A stretch of DNA of 64,000 nucleotides from an uncultured Gammaproteobacteria bacterium (lineage in GTDB: Bacteria > Patescibacteriota > Microgenomatia > 2-02-FULL-39-11), in contig CAZFNL010000137.1 in NCBI GenBank assembly GCA_964520615.1, positions 84,898-148,897 of the forward strand, read 5' to 3'. The position numbers and the translations under genes are program-made. Positions 15,072-54,523 of this stretch are shown one piece after another. Position 1 is the first letter of the stretch. Every line of letters begins with the position of its first letter. The notes below the pieces were generated by a model that was given only the letters and a program-made list of their open reading frames with translations, did not search any database and was not told the origin of the DNA.

Positions 15072-15135
15072 CTTAATGTAAAATCAATTTCTTTATATAA
15101 TTGTCATGTATTATAATACAAAGTTAATATAATCT

Positions 15136-20976: not shown

Positions 20977-21304
20977 TCAACTCCTTCATAGCCAGCTTTT
21001 GTACTAACTTTGTCAGTTCATGACGTAAATCCTGAAGATAAACATAAAGCCTGAAAACAAGATAAAAAAGAAGTACAATTGAAGCGTAAATAACAAGATC
21101 TACTCCACGGCCTATACCCAAAATCCTTGCGATATCCCCAGAAATGGATGGATAAATGATGATTGCCAAAGCAGACCCGAAAAGCAAAACCCAAAATATA
21201 AACCCAAAAAATGTTACTTCTCCACTTCTGAAGCGTAAGAAAACACGCGACAAGGCAAATAGAACAAAAATACTTAAGATCGCTTGTGTAAATACTAAAT
21301 GCAT
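20939..21304 (-). CDS. Small 3-4 TM membrane protein, DUF2304-like GT2 partner.
   Basis: 121 aa and hydrophobic. It sits directly between two GT2 genes, an arrangement typical of DUF2304 proteins. The family call is from memory. Confidence 0.4.
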   Translation of the reverse strand: MHLVFTQAILSIFVLFALSRVFLRFRSGEVTFFGFIFWVLLFGSALAIIIYPSISGDIARILGIGRGVDLVIYASIVLLFYLVFRLYVYLQDLRHELTKLVQKLAMKELNGKNEKKSSSQN

Positions 21305-29927: not shown

Positions 29928-31544
29928 TTACCTTCCCACTATCCTGAAGGCAACACTGCCGTCCAAAAAATGGATCTCAGAGAGAAACTTGCCGGCGGAA
30001 GCGGCCGGAATTTCATCAGGAGTACCCACAAAAAGTGTATCGCTTAACCTTGAATCCTTTGTCCAATCGATATTGCGGAACTCATATTTGCCAAAAGATC
30101 TGTTTGCTCTCTGAATCTGTCCGCTTCCCCAGTTTTTCTGATACCAGGCGGGGTCAGTTTTATTGTAAAAAAGGAAAAATATATACGGCTGGTCATACCT
30201 GTAGGTTACGATTATTCTTTTGTAATTTGCCGCATATTTATCTACAACCGAGACGGCTTGTTTATAACCATACTGCCATGACTGGGAATCCATAATCGGC
30301 GTATGCACCCAATACATATGCATATAATAAAAAAAGTTGACTAGCAGTAGAAAAACAGCCAAGGTTACAAAAGATTTATAAAATTCCGGTCTTATTTTTA
30401 CTTTCAGGATATATAGGAATTCAAAAAATCCAACAGCTGTAAAAATCTGGTAAGTAGGAATAAACTCCAATGAGCGCACCGCATGAGGAGTACCAGTTGT
30501 TATTGAGGCCGCGGCAGGTGCCAGAAGAAACCACAGAAATATTACGTTTGCTCTTTCATCCCTATGGTTTAACATGTAATAAATTCCAAAAAGAATAAAC
30601 GGAAGAGTCCAAATATAAAGCATACCCATATTTAATGCATGATGACGGCCGGGTGCATCACCATAGAGGAAAAGAAAATCAAAGTTAAAGTGGTCAAGAT
30701 ATCCAGCTAGAATATCAAATCCGTACACTACTCGCCTGTTATGAGTCAAAACACCCAGGAGATCACCTCTCCCACGATCAAATTCTATTTTGCCTATGCT
30801 ATTACCCAACCTTTCCTGGTCATTCATTATTGTAACCGAACCAAGCCTTGCACTTGTAGTTCTCATTTCTATATAAACCGGGGCAACAAGAATTGCTAAA
30901 ATTATGGCACTTGCCAAAAGCCATTTCAGATTCTTCAAAATATATTTTCTGAAAATAAATATAAGCCCCAGAACCATAACTGGACTAATAAGCCTCGGGC
31001 TATGGTAAGCATAGATTGATAGTGCAAATGAAACGGCGGAAAAAAGATAAAACCATCTTTTTTTCATCCCTTTTAGGAAAAACAGAACTCCGGACATGAA
31101 AAAAAACAGACCTAAATTAGCTTCGAAAGCCACGCGGGAAAACTGTATCTGCCAGGGAGAAATAGAGAAAAGAAAAGTAAAAAAAAGATGAAACCGTCGA
31201 CTTCTTTTTGGGAAAAGCTCTTTGATAAGAAAATACGCTACGATAACGGCTAAGAATCCGAAGAATGCCGATATAAGCCTGGTTGAAAATTCAGTCAAAC
31301 CCAGGATTGCCACAGGAATTATAGTCAAATAAGAATATAATGGTGGCTTATAATCTCCGAATGATTTTATCGATAAAGGCAAAAACCTACCATATTCATC
31401 ACGTCCTGTTTGCAATATCGAATAGGCATTGTATCCCAATGAAGCCTCATCCCAATCCAAAGACGGAGGATTGGTTCCCAACTGCCAAAATCTTAGAAAA
31501 AAGGCAAGAGCAATAATTGAAATCAGGGTTATTTTATATCTCAT
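29928..31544 (-). CDS. PMT_2/ArnT-like GT-C glycosyltransferase (GT39/GT83-type), array paralog 1.
   Basis: 538 aa. LRFWQLGTNPPSLDWDEASLGYNAYSILQTGRDEYG has the loop-1 DE motif, followed by about 11 TM segments and a C-terminal soluble domain. Confidence 0.75.
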   Translation of the reverse strand: MRYKITLISIIALAFFLRFWQLGTNPPSLDWDEASLGYNAYSILQTGRDEYGRFLPLSIKSFGDYKPPLYSYLTIIPVAILGLTEFSTRLISAFFGFLAVIVAYFLIKELFPKRSRRFHLFFTFLFSISPWQIQFSRVAFEANLGLFFFMSGVLFFLKGMKKRWFYLFSAVSFALSIYAYHSPRLISPVMVLGLIFIFRKYILKNLKWLLASAIILAILVAPVYIEMRTTSARLGSVTIMNDQERLGNSIGKIEFDRGRGDLLGVLTHNRRVVYGFDILAGYLDHFNFDFLFLYGDAPGRHHALNMGMLYIWTLPFILFGIYYMLNHRDERANVIFLWFLLAPAAASITTGTPHAVRSLEFIPTYQIFTAVGFFEFLYILKVKIRPEFYKSFVTLAVFLLLVNFFYYMHMYWVHTPIMDSQSWQYGYKQAVSVVDKYAANYKRIIVTYRYDQPYIFFLFYNKTDPAWYQKNWGSGQIQRANRSFGKYEFRNIDWTKDSRLSDTLFVGTPDEIPAASAGKFLSEIHFLDGSVAFRIVGR

Positions 31545-33160
31545 ATTTTTTCTCCGATGATAAATACAGTATCACCTTTAAGACTCTGTATTTCCTTTAT
31601 CTCTTTAAAGCCTCCGGGCATATTTCCGGTTGTTGTCACAACTAGTATTTTCCCTTTGGATTTTTGAAGGTTGTCAAAACCGAAATGTATTTTACCTAGG
31701 TCCGAAACATGCCAAAATCCAAACCAATCCCGGGAATCTTTCTTTATATTCTGAAATTGGCTTTCGGTATACCGGTTGTAAAAAGCAAAATATATATACG
31801 GCCGGCCATAAGACTCTGTCACAAAAATATGGTCATATCTTTTTTCCAGTGGCGTCACATAGGAAACCATCTGTTTATACCCATACTGCCACTCCCCGCT
31901 CCAGTCAACTGGATAATGGATATAATAATTGTGCAGATAATAATAAACGCAGGCAACCAGTAGAAATACGACACTAATCGATAACGTCTGAAATAATTTA
32001 GGCGTTAGATCTTCCTTCAAGCTCCTAAATACCATATATACTCCAAAAGCAATAATAATCTGGTACACAGGCAGAATTGACACAATCCTTAATGCATGGG
32101 GGGTTTCCTTTGCCAGAGCTGCCGGGATTGGTACTATAATCATCCAAAAAAAAAGAGGCCAGAAAACATTTTTTCTCTTCTTAAACAGCCAAAATCCTCC
32201 GGCAATGAGGAAAAACAGGTCAAAGACATAAAGTTCACCCATATTTTGCACCGATAGTCTGGGATTGGCGTCACCCTCTACAAAAAGAAACCGTCCGGTA
32301 AAATTGTCAAAATAGTGCTTCAGGAAATCCATTCCGTAAAGCATCCTTCTGTTGTGAATAATTTTTGCCCACCAAACCCCTTTATCATAAGTTATCATTT
32401 CATTTGATTGTTTTAAGGGAGCAAGGTTATTGAAAATAGATACTTCCTGCAATCGAAGTTTGCTTTCCCGGCTCAACAGGTATGGAATGCTGGGGGAAAC
32501 CAATATAATACCTATAAATACCGAAATAATGACCCATTTCTTATTTGAGAGCATATGCCGCCAAAAATAGACTGATAGGAATAAAAGAAGTAGCGGGGCA
32601 ATTATCCTGTTGGCATTGAAAGTATAAAACGAAGCTATAAATAAAATCACTGATAGTGACAAAAACCACTTCTTTCTTTTTGAGAGAAGAAAAAAATACA
32701 CTGCACTTAAATTCAAAAAAGCTGCCATATTGGCCTCGTATGCCGCACGCGACAGTTGCAGCGACCATGGTGAAACACCAATAAACAAAGATGCTAATAA
32801 AGCTGTTTTTTCATTGCCGAATAATTCCAATACTAAAAGATATGTCACCAAAACCATCATTATTCCGCAAACGGCAGACGGAAATCTGACGGAAAATTCA
32901 TTCAGTCCGAAAAGATGGACTGGCAGGACATCTGCATATATGTACCCCGGGGGTTTATAATCTCCAAAGGCAATAAAACGTGCTAAAGGAAAATATTCTC
33001 CATGCTCATCATGAAGGGATGTCCCAATAAGAAATGCATTGTATCCTAGTGAAGATTCATCCCATGAAAGCGATGGTGGATTTATGTTTATCCGGTACAG
33101 CCTGAGTATTGCGGATAATACGAGAATTATAAACAGAATTGCTATATTTTTTTTAATCAT
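31541..33160 (-). CDS. PMT_2/ArnT-like GT-C glycosyltransferase, array paralog 2.
   Basis: 539 aa. INPPSLSWDESSLGYNAF..DEHGEYFPL. It overlaps paralog 1 by 4 nt. Confidence 0.75.
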   Translation of the reverse strand: MIKKNIAILFIILVLSAILRLYRININPPSLSWDESSLGYNAFLIGTSLHDEHGEYFPLARFIAFGDYKPPGYIYADVLPVHLFGLNEFSVRFPSAVCGIMMVLVTYLLVLELFGNEKTALLASLFIGVSPWSLQLSRAAYEANMAAFLNLSAVYFFLLSKRKKWFLSLSVILFIASFYTFNANRIIAPLLLLFLSVYFWRHMLSNKKWVIISVFIGIILVSPSIPYLLSRESKLRLQEVSIFNNLAPLKQSNEMITYDKGVWWAKIIHNRRMLYGMDFLKHYFDNFTGRFLFVEGDANPRLSVQNMGELYVFDLFFLIAGGFWLFKKRKNVFWPLFFWMIIVPIPAALAKETPHALRIVSILPVYQIIIAFGVYMVFRSLKEDLTPKLFQTLSISVVFLLVACVYYYLHNYYIHYPVDWSGEWQYGYKQMVSYVTPLEKRYDHIFVTESYGRPYIYFAFYNRYTESQFQNIKKDSRDWFGFWHVSDLGKIHFGFDNLQKSKGKILVVTTTGNMPGGFKEIKEIQSLKGDTVFIIGEKI

Positions 33161-33162
33161 AT

Positions 33163-34827
33163 TCAGCAGGGAATTTTCGGATCAATATAACATTTTTTGC
33201 GCAATGTATCATGTATTACAAAAATAAGCCTTCCGTCATCAGGAGCAACTATCTGGTCTTCTCCTCTTGGTTCTTCGGGACGGCCGATATAAAGGCTATT
33301 GGGAGGTATTATTTTCTTTTTTAATCTGTTTGCATCAAGATCAAGAGAGCCAAAATAATATTTGCCGAGTTTAATAAGATGCCGGCCGTCAGCCATGGTG
33401 ACAGGATGATCTATGGCGTACCTGTATCGTATCGGATCATAATGATTATAGACAGCAAAAGCCAGAGTAGCACCGCTGTAAAAATTTGAAATGAAAATCT
33501 GTTTATATTTGGAAGTTCGGGCTTGTGCATAATCAATAGCTGCCTTATTCTCCCATCCCCACCATGTAGCTGCATAAACCGGATACTCCAGATAATAGCG
33601 AATAAGAAGTGTACTCAATGAAACTGTAAAAAGAAGTACTAAAGATGTAACTAGAACACGTCTTCCTAAAATATTTTCTACTGCTTTAATGCTTTCATAA
33701 ATTCCATAGCCGACAAAAATATATGGAGCGGGTAACAATGCCAATGTCCGTACCGCAAACGGTTTCCCTACAAGCGCTGCGGGTACTGGTGCCAAAAGAA
33801 TCCATCCAAAGAAAAATAAGGCGACTTTCCTTTTTTTAACAAACAGCAGATACGCTCCTACAATAAAAAACGGGAACTCCAGAAGGTAGAACATACCCAT
33901 ATTGCCGGTAAAATACCGTAAAGAACTGTCTCCATAAATGTACCAGAAGTTTGGAGATAAAAGCTCTAAATAATTATCGGCAACTAATTGAACTGTGGTT
34001 AAATATCTGTTATGAAATACAGATTTCAACGCAACAGGAATCTTTGATGCATTTCTTTCCTTTATAACTGTCTGAACAGCTGTTGATTCCAACGATCCGG
34101 TAAGCTTATTGAAACGTGATAGTCCTTTTCCGAAAAACGTTACTTTAATAAGTGGAGAGATAAGAATTAGAAAAAATATGAAACTTATTGCAAACTTTTT
34201 CAGTAAATCCCGCTTCTTGTCCAAACTGTCCTCATATCTATAACTGTAAGCAAAAAGTGAAATTAGGAAAATAGGTACCAGAATCCGGGGAGTAAAATAA
34301 GTGTAAAGAGACATGGAAAAGAAAAACATTCCCAAAAGCATAATTTTCAACCTATTCTTACTGGCAAAATAGAAATAAATACCCAGTATAAAAAACAGTA
34401 GGCTCATCGTTGCTTCAAAATAGCCTCTGGACAGATGTATATGCCATGGTGAAATTGCCATAAGAAAAGCAATTATGAGCGAAGTTTTCTTCCTGAAAAA
34501 TAATCCTGAAAGTAGATAAACCGCATAAACTGTTATCATGGAGGAAATTGCCACCGGAAGCCTTATGGAAAACATATTCATCCCCATCACTTTGAAAAAT
34601 GGCACAAGTATATATACTGGGATTGGAGCTTTATAGTCGTCAAACGACCTGAATTCCAAAGGATAAGGAGTCCCATACTCATCCTTACCAGTCAAAAGAA
34701 TATTGTAGGCATTCCAGGCAAAGGCCTGTTCGTCACCATAAAGTGTTGCCGGGAATTTATTAAGCTGCCAAAAGCGCAGAAAGATGCTCAATATCAATAT
34801 CAGTGCTATCAAAATTTTCGTCTTCAT
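33163..34827 (-). CDS. PMT_2/ArnT-like GT-C glycosyltransferase, array paralog 3.
   Basis: 554 aa. LRFWQLNKFPATLYGDEQAFAWNAYNILLTGKDEYGTPYPL. Confidence 0.75.
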   Translation of the reverse strand: MKTKILIALILILSIFLRFWQLNKFPATLYGDEQAFAWNAYNILLTGKDEYGTPYPLEFRSFDDYKAPIPVYILVPFFKVMGMNMFSIRLPVAISSMITVYAVYLLSGLFFRKKTSLIIAFLMAISPWHIHLSRGYFEATMSLLFFILGIYFYFASKNRLKIMLLGMFFFSMSLYTYFTPRILVPIFLISLFAYSYRYEDSLDKKRDLLKKFAISFIFFLILISPLIKVTFFGKGLSRFNKLTGSLESTAVQTVIKERNASKIPVALKSVFHNRYLTTVQLVADNYLELLSPNFWYIYGDSSLRYFTGNMGMFYLLEFPFFIVGAYLLFVKKRKVALFFFGWILLAPVPAALVGKPFAVRTLALLPAPYIFVGYGIYESIKAVENILGRRVLVTSLVLLFTVSLSTLLIRYYLEYPVYAATWWGWENKAAIDYAQARTSKYKQIFISNFYSGATLAFAVYNHYDPIRYRYAIDHPVTMADGRHLIKLGKYYFGSLDLDANRLKKKIIPPNSLYIGRPEEPRGEDQIVAPDDGRLIFVIHDTLRKKCYIDPKIPC

Positions 34828-36452
34828 TATTTATGAAGGGAATCGTAATCAGCCAAAATAAAGGCCTTAGTGTTATCAGGATAATATACCCTATGTATTG
34901 CGTTATTTAATTTCGGAAAATCATTTGGTGCTCCCACAAACAGTATGTTCTTCATACTCTCAAATCTTGGCGGGAAATCCCCAAACTTGTATTTGCCAAA
35001 TCCGTCTACCCATCCAAAACCGTATTCGTTAAGATTCTCCAATTTTGCCTCTTTCTGATATACGCTTGGTGGGTATTTCATATAGAAAAGCGGGTATATG
35101 TATCCCCAGGCATTTCGGCTAAACCAAATCTGTTTATATTTAGGCTGAAGTTCAACTACCTCATTTATAACCGTTTGCATCCCGAAATGCCAATCTTTTG
35201 CATATCTGACCGGAGAGTTAAAATAGTACATATGTAAATAGTATGCTACGTTTATAGACATAACTACTGTTATGAGTATATAAAATACTCGATATATTAC
35301 CGAGTATTTTCTGTTATCAATTAGTGAGACAATTCCTATTGCAACAATGATACTCAGAATTGGCAATAGCGACAATGTTCTGCTGGCTGAGGGAACGAAT
35401 CTTGTCAGTGATGCAGGAATGAGCGCAATAAGCGTCCAGGCGATAATTACCTGACTATGGATATTTTTCTTTCTGATAAGAAAATACGCTCCACAGAGAA
35501 GAAAAGGCAAAACTGTTACATAAAGTAAACCGTTTCCCAAAGTACGGTAAATTGTAACCGCATCACCATTGAAAAAGAGAAAATCAGCAGAGAAGTTTTT
35601 GAAATAATTATCTAAAAATGTTATCGAATATAACATCGGTTTATTGTGGAATAAAGATGGAAGGAAAAAATTACCAAGTTTGTCCTCTCCTCTCTCCTGA
35701 TTAATTTCATTTTTTAATCCTGCATCTGTTGTTATTGCTGTAAAACTTGGTCTTGACCAAAAATCAGGAGACCTAATTATATTTATAAACGGCAACAACA
35801 AAATTAGACCGGAGACAATTGCCGCTCCAACCTCTTTTCTCATACTATGTAACTGATGTCTAAATATAATCAGAAGACTTGTAAGAAGAAACGGAGCTAT
35901 AACACGCGTATCATGATATGCATACATGGACAGGGCAAAAATAATAAAAGATACTATTATCAGCTTTTTGTATTTAAAAGAATATAAAAAAAGCAGGACT
36001 CCAAGTGAAAGAAGCACTACCGACAAATTATTCTCATGTGCCATACGGTTAAACTGCAACCCGAAAGGAAATACCGCAACAAAAAAAGCGCTGAAAAGTG
36101 AAACTGGGGTTCTCCGGAACATCCTGTCTGAGAGAAGATAAACAGTAACAATTAGAACCAAACCCAAAAAGGCGGAAGAATACCTTACAGCTTCTATAGT
36201 CAGCCCAAACACTTTTACAAACGGAACCATAAAATATATATAAAGAGGAGTTTTGTAGTCCCCAAACGACTTGAACGCCAAAGGGAAAGGAGTACCGTAT
36301 TCATCTTTACCAGTCAGAAGAATGGAATAGGCATTATATCCGTATGCCGCTTCATCACTGTATAATCCCGGCGGGACAGTCGAAATCTTATAGAACCTGA
36401 GAAAGACGGACAGGATAAGTATCAGAACAAATAAAACTGTTTTTTTGTTCAT
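34827..36452 (-). CDS. PMT_2/ArnT-like GT-C glycosyltransferase, array paralog 4.
   Basis: 541 aa. LRFYKISTVPPGLYSDEAAYGYNAYSILLTGKDEYGTPFPL. Confidence 0.75.
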   Translation of the reverse strand: MNKKTVLFVLILILSVFLRFYKISTVPPGLYSDEAAYGYNAYSILLTGKDEYGTPFPLAFKSFGDYKTPLYIYFMVPFVKVFGLTIEAVRYSSAFLGLVLIVTVYLLSDRMFRRTPVSLFSAFFVAVFPFGLQFNRMAHENNLSVVLLSLGVLLFLYSFKYKKLIIVSFIIFALSMYAYHDTRVIAPFLLTSLLIIFRHQLHSMRKEVGAAIVSGLILLLPFINIIRSPDFWSRPSFTAITTDAGLKNEINQERGEDKLGNFFLPSLFHNKPMLYSITFLDNYFKNFSADFLFFNGDAVTIYRTLGNGLLYVTVLPFLLCGAYFLIRKKNIHSQVIIAWTLIALIPASLTRFVPSASRTLSLLPILSIIVAIGIVSLIDNRKYSVIYRVFYILITVVMSINVAYYLHMYYFNSPVRYAKDWHFGMQTVINEVVELQPKYKQIWFSRNAWGYIYPLFYMKYPPSVYQKEAKLENLNEYGFGWVDGFGKYKFGDFPPRFESMKNILFVGAPNDFPKLNNAIHRVYYPDNTKAFILADYDSLHK

Positions 36453-36454
36453 TT

Positions 36455-38215
36455 TTATTTATAAATCAGTGTTGACGGTGTTACTTCGATATCCAATATA
36501 TAAAACTGCGGGGTACCGTTTTTAAGCCTGATTGTTCTGAGAACTTTACTTGTAACCTCATCCCCAACTGTCAGATTGAAAGTGCTGCCGCCTAACTTTT
36601 CCTTAACATGGGAAAGAAGTTTGTTTGTCACGAGAACTGCACTCCGTGTGGCTCCGGGCGGGGTTGAGTCAACCCTGGAAACCAGCAATCTGTCTGGTAT
36701 AACCAAATCATCAGCCCAATCTATTTTTTTATAAGTTATGCCTCCGAAACTTTTGACATTTTGGAATCCCTCAGCGTCGGTTTGATATCTGACAACATTT
36801 TCCTGATAGAGTTTTGGGTCCGTCCTATTATAAAAGAGAAAGTATATATAAGGTGAATCGTCAGGATTATCGACCACTATATTCCGAAATCTGGGAGAAA
36901 GATTGTCTACATCTTCAACCAACTGTTGGTATCCTCCCCCCCATTGCGCTTCCAGCAATTTGGGGAAATGTATAAAATACCGGTCGATATAAAAGGAAAA
37001 ATTGACTATAAGAAGCACTCCTACTCCAAGCAAAAAGAGTCTTTGGAATGTCTTTTTTTTGACATCTTGAAATAACAGTACAAATCCAATTGCCGCCAAA
37101 ATATAAGGTAAGGGCAGAAAAACCAACATCCGAGCAGAATGGGGTGCATCTTTGGTAATAGCCGCTGGTATTGGAGAAATTAAAAGCCAGAAAAGAAGAA
37201 TGTAACGCCATTTTAATTTATCCCGAAAAATATAAAACAGGCCTAAAAGTAAAAACGGAGCTTCCCACATATAGAGATTACCAAAATCAGGTATATTGTG
37301 TTGCCAGTTATTCCCGCCTTTAATAAACAGAAATTCTGGAGAAAAACCCAAATAATATCCCTGCAGAAACCTTCCGATAAGGAATGTAATTTTGTTATGG
37401 TAGGCAAGAGTAAGTTTGGAATAAGGATTTATATGATCAAATCTTGGCAACACTACTTTCTGGTATACCAGTGATATATCCGATAGGGGCGTCAAGCCGG
37501 AAATTTTCGTCTTATCCGCAACAAAAAGAGTTTTTGCAAAAATTATTAATCCCAATAAAAATACTGGCAGAAGAAACATAAACAACTTCTTCAATTCCCT
37601 GTGGTATGTTAGAAGATAAACAAGAAGTGCGACTAAAAGAAGAGGTGTAAATACATGATTACCATGATATGTATACATACTAAGACCGAAAAATATTGAA
37701 GATAGCGCCATATATCCAGAAGTTTTTATTCCCTTCAAAAATAAATACAATCCCAATACGACAAAAAATACAGCCACATTTGCTTCTGCCGCTTCCCTGG
37801 AAAAGTGAATAGACCATGGAGATATCGATATGAAAAAAGCTGCCAGAAGAGCTATTGCCTCCATCTTTCTCTCATCCCTTAATAGTTCTTTAACCAAGAA
37901 ATATACAAAGAGGATGGTAGCGGTTCCAAAAAGTATGGACGGAAGACGGACCGAAAACGGCGTCAGGGAAAAAAACTTTATCGGGATGACATCCATATAA
38001 ATATAAAGCGGCAGCTTCCAATCGCCGAAAGACTTGAACGATAAAGGCAGAAATTTCCCGTATTCATCATTTCCAGTATTCAGTATGGAATAAGCATTGT
38101 AACCTATGGCCGCTTCATCACGGTTTAAGCCCGGAGGGGCATAATTTGTATTCCAAACCCGAAGCACAAACCCCAAAATAAGGATAAGGAGAATAAGAAA
38201 ATACTTTCTCTTCAT
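36455..38215 (-). CDS. PMT_2/ArnT-like GT-C glycosyltransferase, array paralog 5. The start is reassigned to the internal Met at 38215.
   Basis: LRVWNTNYAPPGLNRDEAAIGYNAYSILNTGNDEYGKFLPL. The ORF-track start at 38305 overlaps the upstream paralog by 89 nt. The Met beginning MKRKYFLILL at 38215 abuts its stop. Confidence 0.7.
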   Translation of the reverse strand: MKRKYFLILLILILGFVLRVWNTNYAPPGLNRDEAAIGYNAYSILNTGNDEYGKFLPLSFKSFGDWKLPLYIYMDVIPIKFFSLTPFSVRLPSILFGTATILFVYFLVKELLRDERKMEAIALLAAFFISISPWSIHFSREAAEANVAVFFVVLGLYLFLKGIKTSGYMALSSIFFGLSMYTYHGNHVFTPLLLVALLVYLLTYHRELKKLFMFLLPVFLLGLIIFAKTLFVADKTKISGLTPLSDISLVYQKVVLPRFDHINPYSKLTLAYHNKITFLIGRFLQGYYLGFSPEFLFIKGGNNWQHNIPDFGNLYMWEAPFLLLGLFYIFRDKLKWRYILLFWLLISPIPAAITKDAPHSARMLVFLPLPYILAAIGFVLLFQDVKKKTFQRLFLLGVGVLLIVNFSFYIDRYFIHFPKLLEAQWGGGYQQLVEDVDNLSPRFRNIVVDNPDDSPYIYFLFYNRTDPKLYQENVVRYQTDAEGFQNVKSFGGITYKKIDWADDLVIPDRLLVSRVDSTPPGATRSAVLVTNKLLSHVKEKLGGSTFNLTVGDEVTSKVLRTIRLKNGTPQFYILDIEVTPSTLIYK

Positions 38216-38216
38216 T

Positions 38217-39875
38217 TCAGCTGTTTTTGAAAATCTTAAATAACGACTTACTGGCCGGATTACGTATTTCTTTAATATAACTTTTATCACCGGCCGCCTG
38301 TTCAAAAGGTACTACATATAAAGTATTATTCTGCAAATTATCCTTGACATACTTCCATTCAAAATTATTAGGGAACCAGTATTTCCCGAATCCTTCCACA
38401 TGCTCAAACCCAAAACGGTCGGGCACATAAGGCCTTACTGCCTGCTTTTGATAAAGTGCGGGATTATATTTATTATAGAAAAGAAAATATATATACGGCA
38501 TACCGTTCATATCAGCAACAATCACATTGTCATATCTACCTTCAATCCCACTTATGTAATTCACCACTTGTTTCCAACCCCAATTCCACCAGTCGGAATG
38601 TTCTTTGGGCAAAACAAGAAAATACTGTTGCAAGAAATATCCAAATAAAATCGTATAAACCAAACTTATTGCGATACCCGGTATTATACTTCTGTTGATC
38701 CGGCCGGATAAATATACCGCACCAGTTGCCGAAAATATGACCACTGGTACAACAATATTGAATGTCCGGTTGCTTGAGGGAGTCATAAATGTAAAAGCAG
38801 CAGGAATAATAGAAATTAGTAATAATCCCAAGAGGAGACCTGTGCCCTTATATTTGTGTTTTATCAATAAAATTATTCCTGCCAGAATCAATATCCCGTC
38901 TGGAATATATAAAATTCCCATATTAGGTATCTGAAAAGGCTCAGCCATATCCCCGGTGAAGAAAAGGTAATTACCGTCAAAATGAGATAAATATCTCTTA
39001 ATTATACTTTGCGCGTACATTGTGATGTTGTTGTGGAAAAATCTGGTAATTGCCGGTGAAATTTGTTTTACTCCATCCTGAGCAATATATTCCCATTGCA
39101 AAAGTTTGACTCCCTGATCATAAAAAACGCTAACCGTCTGCGCTCTTCCCAAAAGAACTTCCTTATTTTTCGCTATTCCTACAATAAGAGGAAGAAGTAT
39201 TATACAGCCAGCTAAAAAACCAACTATGACTTCTTTTGATAATAAAGATATGTTTTTTCTGTCCCCCATATAAAGATACAGAATTACAAGTGGTGTAATG
39301 ACACGCATGCCATAATAAGCGTATATTGATAAGGCAAAACAAATAGCAGAAAAAATCAACATTGACGCCCTTTTTTTAGACCAAAGGTAAAACAGCACAC
39401 CGGTTTCAAGGAAAAATAGGCTTACCACTACCAACATCGCCGCCCTGCTCTCTAAAATATGCCATGGAGATATAGCTAGAAATAAAGCAGATAATAAGGC
39501 TATTTTAGAACGTGATTTTTGACCGGAAAAAAGCTCAAAAACAAGTAAATATGTAATAATAACTGTTCCTACTCCCAAAACCGCAGAAGGCATCCTAACC
39601 GCAGCTTCGTCCAATCCCAAAAAATAAATAAAAGGAATCATAAGATATGTAGGCAAAGGCGGTTTCCAGTCCCCGAATGATCTCAAAGATACCGGCAGAG
39701 ATGCGCCGTGTTCATCCCTACCCGTCAGGAGTATGGAATATGCATTATATCCCTGGTCAGCTTCATCAGTGTATAAAGATGCGGGGAAGCTTCCGAGCCA
39801 GACAATACGTAAAACTGCAGAAAAAATTATGATTGCAAGGAGTAATAATTCTGCTTTTAATTTAATATGGCGCAT
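38217..39875 (-). CDS. PMT_2/ArnT-like GT-C glycosyltransferase, array paralog 6.
   Basis: 552 aa. LRIVWLGSFPASLYTDEADQGYNAYSILLTGRDEHGASLPV. Confidence 0.75.
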   Translation of the reverse strand: MRHIKLKAELLLLAIIIFSAVLRIVWLGSFPASLYTDEADQGYNAYSILLTGRDEHGASLPVSLRSFGDWKPPLPTYLMIPFIYFLGLDEAAVRMPSAVLGVGTVIITYLLVFELFSGQKSRSKIALLSALFLAISPWHILESRAAMLVVVSLFFLETGVLFYLWSKKRASMLIFSAICFALSIYAYYGMRVITPLVILYLYMGDRKNISLLSKEVIVGFLAGCIILLPLIVGIAKNKEVLLGRAQTVSVFYDQGVKLLQWEYIAQDGVKQISPAITRFFHNNITMYAQSIIKRYLSHFDGNYLFFTGDMAEPFQIPNMGILYIPDGILILAGIILLIKHKYKGTGLLLGLLLISIIPAAFTFMTPSSNRTFNIVVPVVIFSATGAVYLSGRINRSIIPGIAISLVYTILFGYFLQQYFLVLPKEHSDWWNWGWKQVVNYISGIEGRYDNVIVADMNGMPYIYFLFYNKYNPALYQKQAVRPYVPDRFGFEHVEGFGKYWFPNNFEWKYVKDNLQNNTLYVVPFEQAAGDKSYIKEIRNPASKSLFKIFKNS

Positions 39876-40740
39876 GTATATTGTGTAAGTTACCTATAAT
39901 AAATTGCGGATAATGGATTTGGTAGAAATGTAGAAATCCGGCAAAATCATAAATTAAAAAAAGAAAAAGAAAAACTGGTAAAACACTGCTCAAAAAATAT
40001 TTATTTAGGAAAATGTTATAGATTCCAACAGATATAAATATAGTAAAAAAAGGTAATGTAAGGTAATACTCCCGGCTTTCAGGAAAAAAGGGGCTCACTG
40101 CGGAAATAATTAGAAGCAAAAAAAAGGGTAGAAGGATTTCCTTTTTTTGGGAAACTATAACCCGGTAAAAACCTACAAGAAAAAAAGGCAGAAATCCCAA
40201 AAGCAAAATTCCGTAGTCTCTTACTCCGCCCCACCAAAAAGTAATATTTTTGAAAAATAAAAGATCAGGTGATACTAATATAAATATATTTCTTACAATA
40301 TCCTTTATTCCTGGCAGGTGATTGAAATGTCTAAAAATCCAAAATTGCGGGTAAACGAAATATAAGATTATTGAAAAAGGCAGAAAGATTCCTATCTTTA
40401 TCTTTTTGTTAGAAGAGGAAAAAGAGATTAAGAGCGTAAAAATCAACATAAAAAGTGCAACAGTCGGTTGGGAAGCTATACGGTTTTGCTCTATCGTCCA
40501 AGGCAGTAAACTGAACACATACGCACCAATTAACCCGAGCTTGATATTATTATCTTTTATTTTCTTTACATAAAAATAGATTAGATAAACTGAAAAAATC
40601 CCGATTAGGAAAGATATAAAACGGGGAAATAAATCAGCCTGAAACTTTAGAGGAGGCACCGATCCAAGCTGATAAATCCGTAATAAAACAGCGTTGAGTA
40701 AAATAAGCGCCAATATGAAATTCTTTTTCATACTCCTCAC
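39862..40740 (-). CDS. Internally deleted PMT_2-like paralog (292 aa). It is either a gene remnant or a non-catalytic membrane subunit.
   Basis: The N-terminus LLRIYQLGSVPP matches the paralog leaders. The DE loop, the FGDYKPP region and the C-terminal soluble domain are all absent. The mid-TM block SPDLLFFKNITFWWGGVRDYGILLLGFLPFFLVGFY aligns with the conserved F..FLF..G(x)n..LLG.FY block of the full-length copies. Confidence 0.5.
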   Translation of the reverse strand: MRSMKKNFILALILLNAVLLRIYQLGSVPPLKFQADLFPRFISFLIGIFSVYLIYFYVKKIKDNNIKLGLIGAYVFSLLPWTIEQNRIASQPTVALFMLIFTLLISFSSSNKKIKIGIFLPFSIILYFVYPQFWIFRHFNHLPGIKDIVRNIFILVSPDLLFFKNITFWWGGVRDYGILLLGFLPFFLVGFYRVIVSQKKEILLPFFLLLIISAVSPFFPESREYYLTLPFFTIFISVGIYNIFLNKYFLSSVLPVFLFLFLIYDFAGFLHFYQIHYPQFIIGNLHNIHAPY

Positions 40741-42416
40741 AGGTTCTTGGCAATTACCAGAGCTTTCGTACCATTCAGGTACTTTATGGTTTTAAGGATT
40801 CTTGCATCCGGAGGAAAATCACCCGGCAATCCTACAAGAAGCAATCTTTCATTTTTTGGCAATTTATTGTAAGTGAAGTTCTTAAACTCATACTTGTCAA
40901 AATGATTTCTTTGGTCGGCAAAACCGCCTGAAACAGTTCCTCCTCCTGCCAGATATTTTGCCGGAGGGTATTTGGAATAGAAAAGCCAGAAAATATAAGG
41001 CATATCCACATGCATGGAAACCAATACTTTGTCATAATTGGCTTTCTCTTTTTCAGTATATTGAACTGCTTGTTTTCTGCCGTAAAGCCAATATTTTGAC
41101 AACTCATAATTGGTATGGACATAATACTGATGCAGGTAATAGCTATTGTCTATCATAAAAGTGCCCGTCGCAAAAATCATAAAGAGTATAACCACCCATC
41201 TGGACTCTTTTCTGATAAATTTAAAAGCGATAAATAATCCTACTGCGGCAAATATCTGCCATAGAGGGAGAAAAAGTTCGGACCTGACAGCATGGGGAGC
41301 CTCCCTTGTAACAGCATCCGGTATGGGCACAAAAAGAAACCATAAAGGTAAAATAAGGGAATAGCGGTTAAGCCCGTTTTTCAATATATAAAGAATACCC
41401 AGTACAATAAATGGCAACTCCCATATATAGATAAGGCCAAACCCTGGAGCATGATGTAAAGGGACATCTCCTTTTACAAACAAAAACTCAAAGCCAAAAT
41501 TGGACAAGTAATGATGAAATGCTTTAACTAAAGTATCGTAATCCGTATATATCCATCTCTGGTTATGAAAGATTTTTCCGGAAAGCGTATAACCGGCTTT
41601 GGCATCCAGTAATCTCTGATTCAGAAATATTTTTTCAAGGTCTTTCTCATCAAGATATCGGGCTCCGGCATTGAATATGTTTGTTGCCTGAAACCTGATC
41701 TCAGAATCTGGCGTAAGAAGTATTGATACGAATCCGGCAAAAAATACGGCAAATATAAGACCAAATCCGACTATATGTTTCCCTTTCGGAAGCAACCGGT
41801 TGAATATAAGAAAAAGCGAGACCAGAAGAAGAGGTGCAACTACTCGAGTGCTGTGGTATGAAAAGAGGTCCAGGCCGAAAAATAAAGCCGACAGTGTAAA
41901 AAGCCGTGGTTTTTCCAAACCGGCAATAAAAAGATACACTGCCACAACCGTAATAAATACGGACACATTTACTTCAAATGCCGCCCGTGAAAACTGCAGA
42001 TGCCAGGGAGACACTGAAAGAAGAAATGCCACAAGAAAAGCTATATATGAGGCTCCTTTTGCCAAATTGGGTACCTTTGACATAATTGTAAAGACCAGAA
42101 AATAGGTAGCAATAACTGTCAGTATCCCGAAAAATACTGATGGGAACCTCACTCCGAATGAATTTAGGCCGAATAGAGCCACTGAGGGAACTGTAATATA
42201 TTCATAAATTGGAGGCTTGTAATCATCAAGAGACCTGAAAGTCAAAGGCAAAAGAGTGCCGAATTGATCCCGACCCGTATGCAGTATTGAATAAGCGTCA
42301 TAGCCTATGGCCACCTCATCCCACTCCAGGGATACCGGTGTCTTACCCAGTTGGTAAAGCCGCAAGATACTTGCCAGTATAAAAATGGAGACCAATAGAA
42401 AAATATGCCGTTTCAT
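40737..42416 (-). CDS. PMT_2/ArnT-like GT-C glycosyltransferase, array paralog 8. It is promoter-proximal, the first gene of the array.
   Basis: 559 aa. LRLYQLGKTPVSLEWDEVAIGYDAYSILHTGRDQFGTLLPL. Confidence 0.75.
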   Translation of the reverse strand: MKRHIFLLVSIFILASILRLYQLGKTPVSLEWDEVAIGYDAYSILHTGRDQFGTLLPLTFRSLDDYKPPIYEYITVPSVALFGLNSFGVRFPSVFFGILTVIATYFLVFTIMSKVPNLAKGASYIAFLVAFLLSVSPWHLQFSRAAFEVNVSVFITVVAVYLFIAGLEKPRLFTLSALFFGLDLFSYHSTRVVAPLLLVSLFLIFNRLLPKGKHIVGFGLIFAVFFAGFVSILLTPDSEIRFQATNIFNAGARYLDEKDLEKIFLNQRLLDAKAGYTLSGKIFHNQRWIYTDYDTLVKAFHHYLSNFGFEFLFVKGDVPLHHAPGFGLIYIWELPFIVLGILYILKNGLNRYSLILPLWFLFVPIPDAVTREAPHAVRSELFLPLWQIFAAVGLFIAFKFIRKESRWVVILFMIFATGTFMIDNSYYLHQYYVHTNYELSKYWLYGRKQAVQYTEKEKANYDKVLVSMHVDMPYIFWLFYSKYPPAKYLAGGGTVSGGFADQRNHFDKYEFKNFTYNKLPKNERLLLVGLPGDFPPDARILKTIKYLNGTKALVIAKNL

Positions 42417-42555
42417 CTTTACTCTAAGGACTCGTCCATAAATAATTTAATAGGTATTTATATTTACGGCCTTCTGTGCGGCACCGCAAATAGTCATATT
42501 AGAGACGGATGCTGCCTAAAACCGGATCAAAATAACAAGTATTTTAGCACAAAAT

Positions 42556-42580
42556 GAAGCTGAGTAAATAAAGCAGCTTA
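42556..42580 (-). terminator. Weak hairpin (GAAGCTG, 11-nt loop, CAGCTT) in the 173-bp gap between GT2 42590-43513 and the GT-C array.
   Basis: Inverted repeat read directly from the sequence. The stem is only 6-7 bp and AT-rich and the U-tract is poor. It could be a terminator, or part of the array promoter region. Confidence 0.2.
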
Positions 42581-42589
42581 CTTTACATC

Positions 42590-43513
42590 TCAGTCTTTCT
42601 TAAATAAGGAAAATATCTGTCCGTCTTTAATTTTAATCATTGACTTAAACTCGAAACGCTCCTCAAGTGCCTGGGGCAATCTGACTATTGCCTGTAAAAG
42701 CCCTTGTATAAAAGACTTATCAATCTTAATTAATGACTTGGATGTAATATAGATCAAATATAAAATATGATTAACCAGTAATCCAAAATCAGTAATATTC
42801 ATCCAGACAAAAAGAATCTGATTCCGGTATGAAATTGTCTTTATCCGGCTGCTTTTATATTTGTTTCGGATAGCCCCAGTACTTTGTTTGTGCCAAACTG
42901 TGCTTTTCGGTTCAAATACCACTTTATATCCGGCTTTCATCGCTCTGTAAGACAGGTCTATATCCTCCCAGTAAAAGGGGTCATATATTTCCCGCAACCC
43001 CCCCAGATCATTCCATAAGTCTTTTCTGAAAATCCCAGCTCCTCCTGAAACCCAAAGAGTATTTTTCTTGTCGGGATTTCCTTTTGAGTGGATGAGAAAT
43101 CCATTTTTAAATTCACCGATACCCCTGCCTCGGAGTACCGTCATGTTTTTCTCTTCTACGCTTTTCTGAAGGCATCCTACTGCAAAAACTTTATTATCGG
43201 CAAAATGGGGCAGAAGATATTCTAAAAAATCAGTTTCTGGATAAACATCGCTATTTAGAAGAAGCACTAATTCTCCTTTTGCCACCCTCACGCCATTATT
43301 TACCGCAGTGGAAAATCCCCGATTGATTTTACTTTGTAAAACCTTTATATGGGGAAAATTCTTCCGGAGCATTACCACGCTATCATCCTCTGAAGCATCG
43401 TCCACAACTATAATCTCTGCACCTCTTGCAGCTTCTGAAACCTCCGGCAAGTTTTTCGCTAACAAATTCCGGCCGTTATAGTTTGGTATAACAACGCTTA
43501 CCTTTTTATTCAT
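42590..43513 (-). CDS. Glycosyltransferase family 2.
   Basis: 307 aa. VSVVIPNYNGRNLLAKNLPEVSEAARGAEIIVVDDASEDDSVVML and LLNSDV. Confidence 0.8.
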   Translation of the reverse strand: MNKKVSVVIPNYNGRNLLAKNLPEVSEAARGAEIIVVDDASEDDSVVMLRKNFPHIKVLQSKINRGFSTAVNNGVRVAKGELVLLLNSDVYPETDFLEYLLPHFADNKVFAVGCLQKSVEEKNMTVLRGRGIGEFKNGFLIHSKGNPDKKNTLWVSGGAGIFRKDLWNDLGGLREIYDPFYWEDIDLSYRAMKAGYKVVFEPKSTVWHKQSTGAIRNKYKSSRIKTISYRNQILFVWMNITDFGLLVNHILYLIYITSKSLIKIDKSFIQGLLQAIVRLPQALEERFEFKSMIKIKDGQIFSLFKKD

Positions 43514-43528
43514 ATTAAACTTCTCGTA

Positions 43529-45844
43529 TCAAATCAAACTAGTGTAAAACGTTATTGTGTGTTCACCTTTGGGTACGACAATCGCCCGCAAAAGGAAATC
43601 AGCCTTGAGAATTTCCGCAGGTTTCTCATCAATTGATGCCTTCCATGACGGATAATAAATATCAGTCAAAACCAACAATCTGTCTTCAGTTGTAACCACC
43701 TTAATCTGGACATCATTTGCCTCATAATGAACAATCTCTGCTTTATCATTTTCTAACCCTTTCTTCTGAGGTTTGATATCCACATTCTTATTCAACACCA
43801 CCGTATTCCTTAAATTATCGGCAAGTGAATACATCTTGTCCATCTCTTCCTGGGGATTTGAGGCAATGACAATATTTCCAGCAAAAAAAGCCCTCGGGAA
43901 AAACTTCGTATTTTCATAAAGGTAAGTATTTCCCTCAGTCATGATATATCTTAACTTTGATGATTTTAGCGGTCCGAAACTAAGTATATACTTTACCCCC
44001 AATAGATCTGAAAAGAAACTGTCGTAATTTGAAGGAGTTACAATCCTGTTGAAGGATGCGGCATCTATATCCGTCTTACCCCTTCCCCATGAAGCCGCAA
44101 ACCGATTGTACAACAAAAGATATAAAGGATCATATCCTGCTACATCCTGTAATTTGTAGTAGACAGAAAAATTCGGAGGCATTATACGTCTGTCCGTAGC
44201 CATAATTCTAAAATTGCTTTTGTTGTCTCTTTTTATAAAATTAGTGACGGTTGTTGGAGGATAAAGGAATTCGCTTTTGGAAAATGGGGTAAATTTCCAA
44301 CCAAACCTGAAAATCTCTGCAATAAAAATGATAATTAGCAAAAAAAATAGAGGGACTTTATTATTCATCTTCTTTGACGCTACCCACAGCAATAATACCG
44401 CAGAAAACAAATATACAATACTGGGCAAGAAAAGATTTCTTTTAGAGACGGAAATGTCCGCCGCCGAAATATTCAGCTTAAAAAGAGAAAATTTCAAAAC
44501 AAATATCCAAAGAAGAATAAAAACTGCGGCAACAGGAATTAAAACACACAATATTTTCCTTATATTTTTATCTGATGAAATTTTTTCATAACCCAATGCC
44601 GAAAGAATTGAAAGAGAAAAATCCACAAGAAACATCAATCTTGTGGGCTGACTTGAAGAAAGAAGAGGAATATGCAAACTGAAAGGCAGCATTGAAAATA
44701 CATTTGGCAAGGCAAAAATAAGACTGAGGAAAAAAACGGTACCGAAAAAAAGGACCTTCTTGCTATAGTGGAATACAAGTGCATACAAGGCAAAAATAAG
44801 AGGCAAAATTCCTATAAAACCTACAAACTCGCCATAATTCCAGACTCCCCAATAGTTATTTGTGGCAGGATTACCGAAAAAGTCAGGAGCAATAAACTGA
44901 ACGAGGTTTTGCCAGGGAAGAAACCAACCAGCAACATGCGTATAGTTTCCCTGATCGACATTTCTAGCTGAAAGCAGGATGAAACGCAGTGAAGGCAACC
45001 ATTGGACTAGTGTCAAAATAACAAATAACAAATAACAAAATAAAAAAAGCAAAATGATCCTGAGTTTATTTTTCCTCGCCAGTAAAATTTTGATCGCTAA
45101 ATAGAAATTAGTGACTATAAACTCATAAAAGAAAATCTGCAAATGTCCGGCAAAAAAAGAGAAAATTAAGGAAAAAGTAAAAATCCCTACCCAGATAATT
45201 ATCTTCTTTTTTTTTGCTTGTAGTTTTGAGTTTTGAAGATTACTGATAGCTTGAATAATTTTCTCAATTGATAACAGTAATAATGGAAGCCAGAGTGCGG
45301 TTTGTAAAACTGTATTCCACTCCAACCAAGCAATGCTGAAACCTGAAAAAGCAAATGCTACGGATCCTATAAAAGCACCCGTTTCCCCTACCCCGATTTC
45401 CTTCAAATAAAAATATAAAAACATTCCCGCAAGAAGAGGTTGGACAATAATAAGAATTGTCCAGGCGACATCAAACGGCAGAAATATAAATAAGGTATTC
45501 AGTGGATAAAAAGATGCTGACTGGAAATTGGCTAAAAGTGGCGTACCGGAAAATGAGTAAGGATTCCAAAGAGGCAGTACACCATTTACCATTTGTGACA
45601 TTGCTGCATACCGCCAGACATATTGTTGTCGTACTGGATCAGTCGTCAGAAAGTTTTTGTAGGGAACACCTGCCGGATAACCGGCAAAAGACACATCCTT
45701 AAAAGGATAATACATGCCTGTTATGGTGTCGGCAGGAATGGGAAGTTTACCCTGCAAAAAGACCGGGTAAAAAAAAATGATAATTAAGAATAATATAAGA
45801 AATAGGAAAAAACTATTCCGAAAGAATTTGGTCAATCTTTTCAT
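43529..45844 (-). CDS. YfhO-family polytopic membrane protein (GT-C candidate), long form.
   Basis: 771 aa. The N-terminus is PADTITGMYYPFKD..LPLWNPYSFSGTPLLANFQSASFYPLN. There are at least 12 TM segments. The C-terminal domain is DIYYPSWKASIDEKPAEIL..VVPKGEHTITF. Both ends resemble B. subtilis YfhO-type proteins. Confidence 0.55.
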   Translation of the reverse strand: MKRLTKFFRNSFFLFLILFLIIIFFYPVFLQGKLPIPADTITGMYYPFKDVSFAGYPAGVPYKNFLTTDPVRQQYVWRYAAMSQMVNGVLPLWNPYSFSGTPLLANFQSASFYPLNTLFIFLPFDVAWTILIIVQPLLAGMFLYFYLKEIGVGETGAFIGSVAFAFSGFSIAWLEWNTVLQTALWLPLLLLSIEKIIQAISNLQNSKLQAKKKKIIIWVGIFTFSLIFSFFAGHLQIFFYEFIVTNFYLAIKILLARKNKLRIILLFLFCYLLFVILTLVQWLPSLRFILLSARNVDQGNYTHVAGWFLPWQNLVQFIAPDFFGNPATNNYWGVWNYGEFVGFIGILPLIFALYALVFHYSKKVLFFGTVFFLSLIFALPNVFSMLPFSLHIPLLSSSQPTRLMFLVDFSLSILSALGYEKISSDKNIRKILCVLIPVAAVFILLWIFVLKFSLFKLNISAADISVSKRNLFLPSIVYLFSAVLLLWVASKKMNNKVPLFFLLIIIFIAEIFRFGWKFTPFSKSEFLYPPTTVTNFIKRDNKSNFRIMATDRRIMPPNFSVYYKLQDVAGYDPLYLLLYNRFAASWGRGKTDIDAASFNRIVTPSNYDSFFSDLLGVKYILSFGPLKSSKLRYIMTEGNTYLYENTKFFPRAFFAGNIVIASNPQEEMDKMYSLADNLRNTVVLNKNVDIKPQKKGLENDKAEIVHYEANDVQIKVVTTEDRLLVLTDIYYPSWKASIDEKPAEILKADFLLRAIVVPKGEHTITFYTSLI

Positions 45845-54513: not shown

Positions 54514-54523
54514 AAAATTATCT

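Follow-up and report, generated by a model that had tools for sequence, protein, structure and literature searches.

A conserved tandem array of seven full-length GT-C glycosyltransferase paralogs and one short GT-C-fold gene in a Gottesmanbacteria-like glycosylation island

Results

A head-to-tail array of eight GT-C-type genes

We analyzed a 64-kb stretch of DNA, referred to here as the window (positions 84,898 to 148,897 of contig CAZFNL010000137.1), which carries a tandem array of genes for membrane glycosyltransferases of the GT-C type. The organism is taken in the present reading to be a Gottesmanbacteria-like bacterium (Microgenomates, candidate phyla radiation (CPR)/Patescibacteria) from groundwater, with a tiny genome. 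Eight open reading frames (ORFs) on the minus strand, together spanning 12.5 kb at 29928-42416, make up the array; seven are full-length and one is short, and they were named c8 (the first gene of the array) to c1 (the last) (Table 1). The coordinates and layout, which had been described in an earlier note on this DNA (the original prediction), were reproduced, and the tandem arrangement, which is far beyond chance, was thereby confirmed. The GC content of the array is that of its surroundings.

Spacings at the junctions, read from c8 to c1, were -4, -14, +1, +2, -1, +2 and -4 nt; the predicted spacing of 0 to 4 nt held for all of them except c7/c6, where the genes overlap by 14 nt. The open frame of c5 runs 90 nt past its ATG at 38215 to a TTG at 38305 (616 aa) and then overlaps the 3′ end of c6, but the ATG is the likely start because the c5 ortholog in one of the related loci considered below, L001, was called as 586 aa. 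All seven full copies can be aligned end to end with pairwise identities of 26 to 39%, the most divergent being c3 (26 to 31% to the other copies). A hidden Markov model (HMM) built from these seven copies was used to search the window and matched c7 at E=2e-19, and it returned a single other match, a weak one to the ORF at 61900-63393.

The full-length copies are GT-C enzymes with an ArnT-like architecture

In Pfam searches all seven full copies matched PMT_2 (PF13231), a glycosyltransferase family, with 30.0 to 46.8 bits against a gathering score of 26.1 (values per copy are listed in Table 1); c7 gave no PMT_2 match. The PMT model PF02366 was matched above threshold by two of the seven (c2, 41 bits; c6, 32.2 bits), with no match reported for the other five, and neither a MIR domain nor a PMT_4TMC module was found in any copy at E<=0.01. 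Among the NCBIfam models, the copies produced only sub-threshold matches to Agl23 (TIGR03663; four copies, 29.7 to 46.8 bits against a cut-off of 126.25), which span profile positions ~3-184 of 435; the other copies were unmatched, and the ArnT model was absent from the NCBIfam matches of the array. A search of PDB sequences with c2 alone gave no match, a profile of the eight copies gave noise plus ArnT at E=0.79, and an 80-sequence profile matched ArnT alone (E=0.011, residues 66-225), with the KPP motif that follows loop 1 aligned. The sequences are thus only marginally similar to those of solved structures. Identity of the array copies to characterized GT-C members is 9 to 16%. Metagenome-assembled genomes (MAGs) of Patescibacteria and Candidatus Gottesmanbacteria supplied the best homologs of c1, which are annotated there either as 'glycosyltransferase family 39 protein' or as 'phospholipid carrier-dependent glycosyltransferase'.

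The structure model, made for c1, has about 11 transmembrane (TM) helices, a long first outer loop and an N-terminal TM module, the features of the GT-C membrane fold, together with a helical outer loop (residues 230-312) and an alpha/beta C-terminal domain (residues 420-538). By TM-score its nearest solved structure is ArnT, at 11 to 12% identity, and further structural neighbors are ALG12, AftA and EmbA. The full copies are GT-C enzymes of ArnT-like architecture that belong neither to classical GT39 nor to classical GT83; the predicted PMT_2/ArnT-like character was thus upheld by the Pfam scores and the fold, and the predicted membership of GT39/GT83 in the classical sense was not. A soluble C-terminal domain, also predicted, does exist, but its length is not uniformly ~150 aa, since it measures ~120 aa in c1 and is longer in c5, which has the longest C-terminal extension among the copies.

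Ten residues are present in all seven full copies (D32, E33, D49, D64, K66, R89, R137, H268, N269 and R357, c1 numbering), and D32-E33 and D49 are also invariant in 80 homologs. Individual copies deviate at other conserved positions: Q replaces E50 in c8, G replaces D296 in c5, and L and V replace E141 and N143 in c6, which keeps the loop-1 acidic residues. Conservation peaks in loop 1 (residues 20-68), where mean identity is 55% versus 27 to 34% elsewhere. The segment just after the Asp-Glu (DE) motif, which had been proposed to vary between copies, belongs to this most conserved region.

Topology was assessed by a positive-inside count, using the helices of the model. In all seven copies the predicted cytoplasmic loops hold 10 to 15 Lys plus Arg per 34 to 46 residues and the short outer loops 2 to 6 per 54 residues, and loop 1 is net acidic; the c1 model, furthermore, superposes on enzymes whose loop 1 is extracytoplasmic. 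These counts and this superposition indicate, indirectly, that the DE motif and the TPHAxR loop lie outside the membrane, together with the large loop 230-312 and the C-terminal domain. The predicted outer-face, rather than cytoplasmic, position of the DE motif is therefore supported by the model-based counts and by structural homology.

The array is ancient and each copy has its own orthologs

The array was compared with seven related loci (L001, L002, L004 and L006 to L009). The close relatives L001 and L006 have all eight genes from c8 to c1, with ortholog identities of 79 to 91%. All eight are also present in L007 (Gottesmanbacteria NC_groundwater_881), at 48 to 67% identity (35% for c7), where a ~650-aa membrane protein not belonging to PMT_2 stands between c3 and c2. 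The more distant L008 and L009 have the order c8-c7-c6, a divergent PMT_2 gene of ~600 aa, c3, the ~650-aa protein, c2 and c1. L004 begins within c5, with the upstream part lying outside the locus, and continues with c4, a divergent copy, c3, the ~650-aa protein, c2 and c1. In L002, also more distant, c8-c7-c6 are followed by a PTPS_related gene on the opposite strand and two unrelated ORFs, and then by c2-c1.

Taken gene by gene, c8 orthologs occupy the first position in L006, L007, L008, L009 and L002 (61 to 89% identity), and c6 orthologs were found in the same five loci (44 to 81%). Orthologs of c3 are present in L006, L007, L008, L009 and L004 (58 to 86%), and those of c2 in six of six related loci (50 to 87%), always adjoining c1. 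Orthologs of c5 (82% in L006, 48% in L007, 56% in L004) and of c4 (84%, 51% and 52% in the same loci) were not found in L008, L009 or L002. The ends of the array, c8-c7-c6 and c2-c1, are thus fixed among the relatives and the middle varies, so that the middle of the array is a swap zone.

Two kinds of protein encoded in the relatives were noted in this zone. The ~650-aa protein between the c3 and c2 orthologs is polytopic, has a C-terminal soluble part and no Pfam match, and is absent from the window; hhalign of the array family against it gave no significant homology. The divergent PMT_2 copy has 576 to 606 aa and less than 31% identity to any copy of the window, and lies in place of c5 and c4 in L008 and L009 and between c4 and c3 in L004.

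Orthologs are far more alike than paralogs (48 to 68% identity in other Gottesmanbacteria, against 26 to 40% between paralogs in the same comparison), and therefore the duplications are older than the divergence of these lineages. Judged by these alignments, the array is ancient and its copies have one-to-one orthologs in other Gottesmanbacteria, in agreement with the old or diversified duplications that the modest identity between the copies had suggested. Substitution ratios (dN/dS, nonsynonymous to synonymous) against L006 were 0.08 to 0.105 for the seven full copies (Table 1). A recently amplified cassette, redundant or diversifying (for example, for antigenic variation), with c7 as a decaying pseudogene, might be read from the head-to-tail layout with one shortened copy and from the variable middle. 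This explanation is contradicted by the orthology and selection results and was rejected as extremely improbable: the paralogs are 26 to 39% identical as against 48 to 90% for orthologs standing in the same order, dN/dS is 0.08 to 0.16 across all eight genes, c7 stands in a family of its own (94 cluster representatives, 22 invariant columns), and the GC content matches that of the surroundings.

Site patterns were examined in an alignment of the seven orthogroups. A first, very strict criterion for orthogroup-specific sites yielded almost no sites, and a relaxed one was used. Columns common to at least six orthogroups make up 37% of loop 1, 21% of the short TM1 and 8 to 11% of most other regions. 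Sites conserved within groups and different between them amount to 25% of the columns of the large outer loop, where they cluster at 300-308, and further paralog-specific sites lie around 349-356. Copies that have donor binding and chemistry in common, but are specific for different acceptors or linkages, would be expected to show such a pattern.

The short copy c7 belongs to a separate, conserved family

The original prediction had taken c7 to be an internally deleted copy; it proved instead to belong to a distinct conserved family. Its 35 close homologs are 275 to 321 aa long and share 22 invariant columns. When 1.84 billion representatives were searched with a c7 profile, 94 clusters (50% identity) were recovered at E<=1e-30, nearly all of ~260 to 310 aa and cleanly separated in score from the full-length GT-Cs. 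No Pfam model covers this family. In every locus that reaches that far c7 holds the second position of the array, and its dN/dS of 0.16 (versus L006) indicates purifying selection. A decaying pseudogene was therefore ruled out by the selection, the conserved position and the separate family of 94 clusters.

Profile-profile comparison nevertheless related c7 to the long family (probability 99.8, E=2e-27). Relative to it c7 is without three blocks, namely, loop 1 and the helix after it, a middle segment (residues ~165-270) and the C-terminal domain. It keeps the GT-C core fold, and its structural neighbors include PIG-U, a non-catalytic GT-C-fold subunit. The loop-1 acidic residues D32-E33 and D49 are absent from c7, which has no invariant Asp, and its only invariant Glu residues are in a different outer loop (PESRE). 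On these features c7 is probably non-catalytic and may act as a partner, a scaffold or a lipid handler.

These properties of c7 also bear on the possibility that the array encodes one or more hetero-oligomeric complexes, as in Pmt1-Pmt2 or EmbA-EmbB, with c7 as a scaffold and catalysis confined to part of the subunits. Besides the GT-C core of c7 without the catalytic loop and its likeness to PIG-U, several observations would fit such complexes, including the overlapping or abutting start and stop codons (-14 to +2 nt), suggestive of coupled translation, the strictly conserved c8-c7-c6 neighborhood, and the loss of one otherwise conserved acidic residue in each of c5 and c6. However, the gain, loss or replacement of c5, c4 and c3 among relatives is easier to reconcile with independent enzymes than with obligate subunits, and we consider complexes of this kind unlikely.

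The window is a glycosylation island with candidate donor synthases

The whole 64-kb window is a glycosylation island, encoded almost entirely on the minus strand with near-zero intergenic space. Counting Pfam families which we take to belong to the GT-C clan, it holds ~15 GT-C-type genes including those of the array, together with 12 GT2 and 3 GT4 glycosyltransferase genes, a Wzx flippase gene and many genes for sugar-nucleotide epimerases and dehydratases (Table 1). No match was obtained in tRNA and Rfam scans of the window.

Table 1. Features of the array, of the surrounding window and of the variable middle in related loci. Positions are those of the window unless a locus is named; bits for array copies are PMT_2 scores, and dN/dS values are against L006.
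Feature	Position	Strand	Description
c8	40737-42416	-	full-length GT-C (PMT_2) paralog, 559 aa; 32.0 bits; dN/dS 0.08
c7	39862-40740	-	short GT-C-fold paralog, 292 aa from GTG or 289 aa from ATG
c6	38217-39875	-	full-length GT-C paralog, 552 aa; 30.0 bits; dN/dS 0.08
c5	36455-38215	-	full-length GT-C paralog, 586 aa from ATG at 38215; 41.9 bits; dN/dS 0.09
c4	34827-36452	-	full-length GT-C paralog, 541 aa; 37.5 bits; dN/dS 0.10
c3	33163-34827	-	full-length GT-C paralog, 554 aa; 41.8 bits; dN/dS 0.105
c2	31541-33160	-	full-length GT-C paralog, 539 aa; 46.8 bits; dN/dS 0.086
c1	29928-31544	-	full-length GT-C paralog, 538 aa; copy used for the structure model
Intergenic gap	42417-42589	-	173 bp, upstream of c8
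GT2	42590-43513	-	307 aa, no hydrophobic segment found; Pfam Glycos_transf_2 86.4 bits
YfhO-family GT-C	43529-45844	-	771 aa; Pfam YfhO 63.7 bits; upstream of the GT2 gene
YfhO-family protein	25091-26743		
PIG-V-like protein	22025-23221		
Further PMT_2 protein	52740-54116		
Further PMT_2 protein	61900-63393		
PTPS_related protein	58521-60254		
PTPS_related protein	60262-61899		
Wzx-type flippase	51189-52637	-	Polysacc_synt_3 176.2 bits, polytopic; candidate for the export of lipid-linked sugar or glycan
GT2 with C-terminal TM helices	6902-7846	-	314 aa, hydrophobic segments 220-285; candidate GtrB/ArnC/PgfS-type synthase
GT2 (PpgS-like)	21309-21989	-	226 aa; full-length PpgS match 142.9 bits, below cut-off 370
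DUF2304 small membrane protein	20939-21304	-	121 aa; Pfam DUF2304 73.9 bits; next after GT2 21309-21989
AglJ/DPM-like GT2	26730-27536		below equivalog cut-offs
AglJ/DPM-like GT2	54853-55617		below equivalog cut-offs
Block of putative sugar-synthesis genes	3-16386		located genes in the next three rows
Carbamoyltransferase	3089-4798		
DHQ-synthase-like	8692-9795		
TPP-dependent enzyme	11383-13224		
Polytopic membrane protein	16411-18066		551 aa, C-terminal soluble part, no Pfam match; possibly GT-C-like or polymerase-like
Outer-domain protein	49504-51390		628 aa, one N-terminal TM segment, large outer domain, no Pfam match
Two small ORFs	54109-54829		cupin-domain protein (134 aa) and 101-aa MGMT DNA-binding-domain-only protein, between PMT_2 and GT2 genes
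~650-aa protein	L004:6447-8396		between c3 and c2 orthologs
~650-aa protein	L007:~13330-15310		between c3 and c2 orthologs
~650-aa protein	L008:14487-16436		between c3 and c2 orthologs
~650-aa protein	L009:15888-17873		between c3 and c2 orthologs
Divergent PMT_2 copy	L004:3060-4790		between c4 and c3
Divergent PMT_2 copy	L008:11021-12841		in place of c5 and c4
Divergent PMT_2 copy	L009:12472-14253		in place of c5 and c4

Several GT2 genes of the island are candidates for the synthesis of lipid-linked donors. In NCBIfam the product of 6902-7846 matched PgfS with 221.9 bits and ArnC with 132.2 bits; each match ran over the full length, and neither score reached the equivalog cut-off. The PpgS-like GT2 gene and the DUF2304 gene that follows it form a pair, also present in L001 and L002, which by its composition is a candidate polyprenyl-phosphate-N-acetylhexosamine (HexNAc) synthase of the GacI/GacJ or PpgS/Rv3632 type. 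Two AglJ/DPM-like GT2s add to this set, and none of the candidate synthases adjoins the array. Together with the Wzx-type flippase, these candidate genes of the same island could provide a supply of lipid-linked donors.

The ArnC-like GT2 and a generic aminotransferase of the DegT family in the window, along with ArnT being the nearest solved structure and the sole PDB sequence match, would be compatible with a true ArnT function, that is, the transfer of aminoarabinose onto lipid A or another lipid. It was rejected on family models, the missing pathway for 4-amino-4-deoxy-L-arabinose (Ara4N) and host biology, and we regard it as far-fetched: no ArnT equivalog match was found in NCBIfam, identity to ArnT is 11 to 12%, homologs of ArnA and ArnD were not detected among the window genes, and seven paralogs would be superfluous for one lipid modification. 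CPR bacteria, moreover, are not known to make lipid A.

Protein O-glycosylation, PMT- or Pgf/PgtC-like, is a further possibility, in which sugars would be placed on Ser/Thr of secreted or surface proteins (S-layer, pilins, Ser/Thr-rich disordered regions) and each paralog would serve a different protein class or extend an O-glycan. This proposal is partly compatible with the interpretation that we favor (below), from which it differs only in the acceptor. However, no MIR domain or PMT_4TMC module was found in the copies and no Ser/Thr-rich candidate acceptor protein in the window, and the combination of Wzx, many cytoplasmic GT2 and GT4 enzymes and sugar-nucleotide tailoring genes is typical of the synthesis of lipid-linked polymers. 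We therefore retain it as a tentative alternative with odds of well below even.

It could also be asked whether part of the array, c7 above all, translocates lipid-linked sugars in the manner of a scramblase, like archaeal Agl23, a putative hexose-P-dolichol flippase that has been reported to translocate lipid-linked oligosaccharide in proteoliposomes (PMC11182771). The only NCBIfam matches of the array are the sub-threshold ones to Agl23, no match to a GtrA-type flippase was found among the scanned ORFs of the window, and c7 is conserved despite the missing catalytic loop. The Agl23 matches, however, score far under the cut-off and extend over no more than the N-terminal ~180 positions of the profile, the loop-1 acidic residues expected of active GT-C transferases are retained in each of the seven full copies, and a Wzx flippase is present, so that a translocator role appears improbable.

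The block at 1-16386 contains genes for thiamine pyrophosphate (TPP)-dependent, 3-dehydroquinate (DHQ)-synthase-like, aldolase (HpcH-type), short-chain dehydrogenase/reductase, methyltransferase, aminotransferase (DegT), carbamoyltransferase and asparagine-synthase proteins, the AsnB-like gene being cut by the window end, as well as GT4, nucleotidyltransferase and 4,6-dehydratase-like genes. This gene content suggests the synthesis of an unusual modified sugar. Neither an initiating phosphoglycosyltransferase nor a Wzy-type polymerase was recognized in the window. Comparison of the array family with the polytopic protein at 16411-18066 by hhalign showed no significant homology. The annotated start of the ORF at 49504-51390 overlaps the Wzx gene by ~200 nt, and the true start probably lies farther downstream.

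The region upstream of the array

The 173-bp gap before c8 had been proposed to hold the promoter of the array. Its length stands, and it contains one sigma-70-like match (TTTACT-16-TAAAAT, with an upstream TG, at 42568-42541 on the minus strand), but promoter-like sites in the region were not in excess over shuffled sequences (45 versus a shuffled mean of 51.1), and the gap length is not conserved: at the equivalent place L007 and L008 have 28 and 40 bp, and L006, with an 88-bp indel, has 82 bp. Relative to L006, an insertion of ~88 bp occupies 42428-42515, and the flanking parts of the gap are 88 to 91% identical.

The GT2 gene that precedes c8 keeps this place in L006 to L009, and the order GT2-GT2-GT2-GT4-YfhO-GT2-array is also found in L008 and L009. 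Searches of NCBIfam and the PDB with the product of the GT2 gene next to c8 yielded nothing beyond generic GT2 matches under the thresholds, and this product appears to be a generic soluble GT2. Co-transcription of the array with these upstream genes is no less likely than transcription from a promoter of its own.

Discussion

A proposed specialized set of outer-face glycosyltransferases

The preferred interpretation, to which we assign a probability of roughly 0.7, is that the array is an ancient, vertically inherited block of seven specialized GT-C transferases that use polyprenyl-phosphate sugars outside the membrane, with c7 as a non-catalytic partner. In the mechanism that we propose, cytoplasmic GT2s of the same island would first attach single sugars to polyprenyl phosphate. 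Once these lipid-linked sugars had been flipped across the membrane, each GT-C paralog would transfer a sugar, on the outer face, to the one acceptor position that it serves in a surface glycoconjugate. The seven enzymes would form a fixed specialized set, probably sequential or branch-specific and neither redundant nor combinatorial, and c7 would most likely be their non-catalytic partner. We infer from the comparisons above that the donor is a polyprenyl-phosphate monosaccharide, that all seven enzymes are active, that they act in sequence or on particular branches, and what part c7 plays. The combinatorial or sequential extracytoplasmic glycosylation put forward in the original prediction was thus partly supported: the orthology, the dN/dS values and the outer-loop sites favor a specialized set, which in the present interpretation would probably act in sequence or on separate branches and not combinatorially.

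A bolder version of this interpretation would make the array an extracytoplasmic assembly line specific to Gottesmanbacteria/Microgenomates, in which the seven GT-Cs build a complex surface glycan entirely from polyprenyl-phosphate monosaccharides and c7 is an obligatory non-catalytic scaffold or a carrier/scramblase (compare Agl23). We consider this quite doubtful; if it were true, c7 would be the first bacterial GT-C-fold pseudoenzyme subunit, and an envelope polymer pathway specific to the CPR would be defined.

The genomes of CPR/Patescibacteria measure ~1 Mb, and a life attached to other cells is assumed for these bacteria, whose surface chemistry is almost unstudied. That 12.5 kb are spent on seven separately conserved GT-Cs and at least 64 kb on glycosylation implies a complex surface coat of glycan or glycoprotein under strong selection; such a coat could plausibly govern attachment to a host or resistance to phages. 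As a gene set open to testing the array is well delimited: its seven enzymes share a catalytic loop and carry paralog-specific outer-loop signatures (300-308 and 349-356), and the ~290-aa c7 family accompanies them.

The seven enzymes add to a known superfamily and have already been annotated automatically in public MAGs; the established picture of GT-C chemistry is not altered by them. In the searchable literature, in which subscription journals are thinly covered, no description was found of the seven-plus-one tandem organization, of the pattern of fixed ends and variable middle, or of the short GT-C-fold family. The nearest mention is of Peribacteria with 'possibly 8' genes annotated as dolichol-phosphate mannosyltransferase (PMC4736985).

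Comparison with known systems

Structurally the closest solved relative is ArnT (GT83) of Cupriavidus metallidurans (PDB 5EZM/5F15), to which the array shows 11 to 12% identity and a PDB sequence match of E=0.011. ArnT is a single enzyme that operates with an Ara4N pathway, whereas here there are seven paralogs in a lineage not known for lipid A and no such pathway, the only genes of that association in the window being the ArnC-like GT2 (132 bits, below the cut-off) and the generic DegT aminotransferase. The array also differs from the PMT enzymes (GT39; yeast Pmt1/Pmt2/Pmt4 and actinobacterial Pmt), as it lacks MIR and PMT_4TMC, has an alpha/beta C-terminal domain instead, and matches PF02366 in only two of its seven full copies.

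In its logic the island resembles the three-component systems GtrA/B/C, CsbB-YfhO, GacI/J/K/L, PgfS/PgfM1 and GtrB/PgtC2, and it contains candidates for the same parts: putative GT2 synthases (one with DUF2304, as in GacI/GacJ), a Wzx-type flippase that may carry lipid-linked sugars, and GT-Cs that include YfhO-family members. In GacI/GacJ and PpgS/Rv3632 a small protein stimulates the polyprenyl-phosphate-HexNAc synthase, and in the GacIJKL pathway the Wzx-family protein GacK is the proposed flippase and the GT-C GacL completes the pathway (bioRxiv 10.1101/180810). Streptococcal PgfS/PgfM1 and GtrB/PgtC2 act on Ser/Thr-rich protein regions (PMC12041528). These systems use one GT-C per modification (two in Pgf), unlike the seven tandem paralogs and the loop-less eighth gene found here; also unlike them, the candidate synthases lie apart from the array and no GtrA homolog was seen.

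PIG-U/GAB1, a GT-C-fold subunit of the glycosylphosphatidylinositol (GPI) transamidase, is among the closest known systems for c7, as PIG-U is one of its structural neighbors. For the array as a whole, mycobacterial embCAB/Aft and eukaryotic ALG3/9/12 and ALG6/8/10 offer a parallel, being paralogous sets of GT-Cs that build one glycan stepwise on the non-cytoplasmic face from polyprenyl- or dolichyl-phosphate monosaccharides. They belong to other GT-C subfamilies (9 to 14% identity), and the ALG genes are dispersed; embC-embA-embB is itself a tandem array of paralogs, with three members as against the seven full-length copies and the conserved short gene described here.

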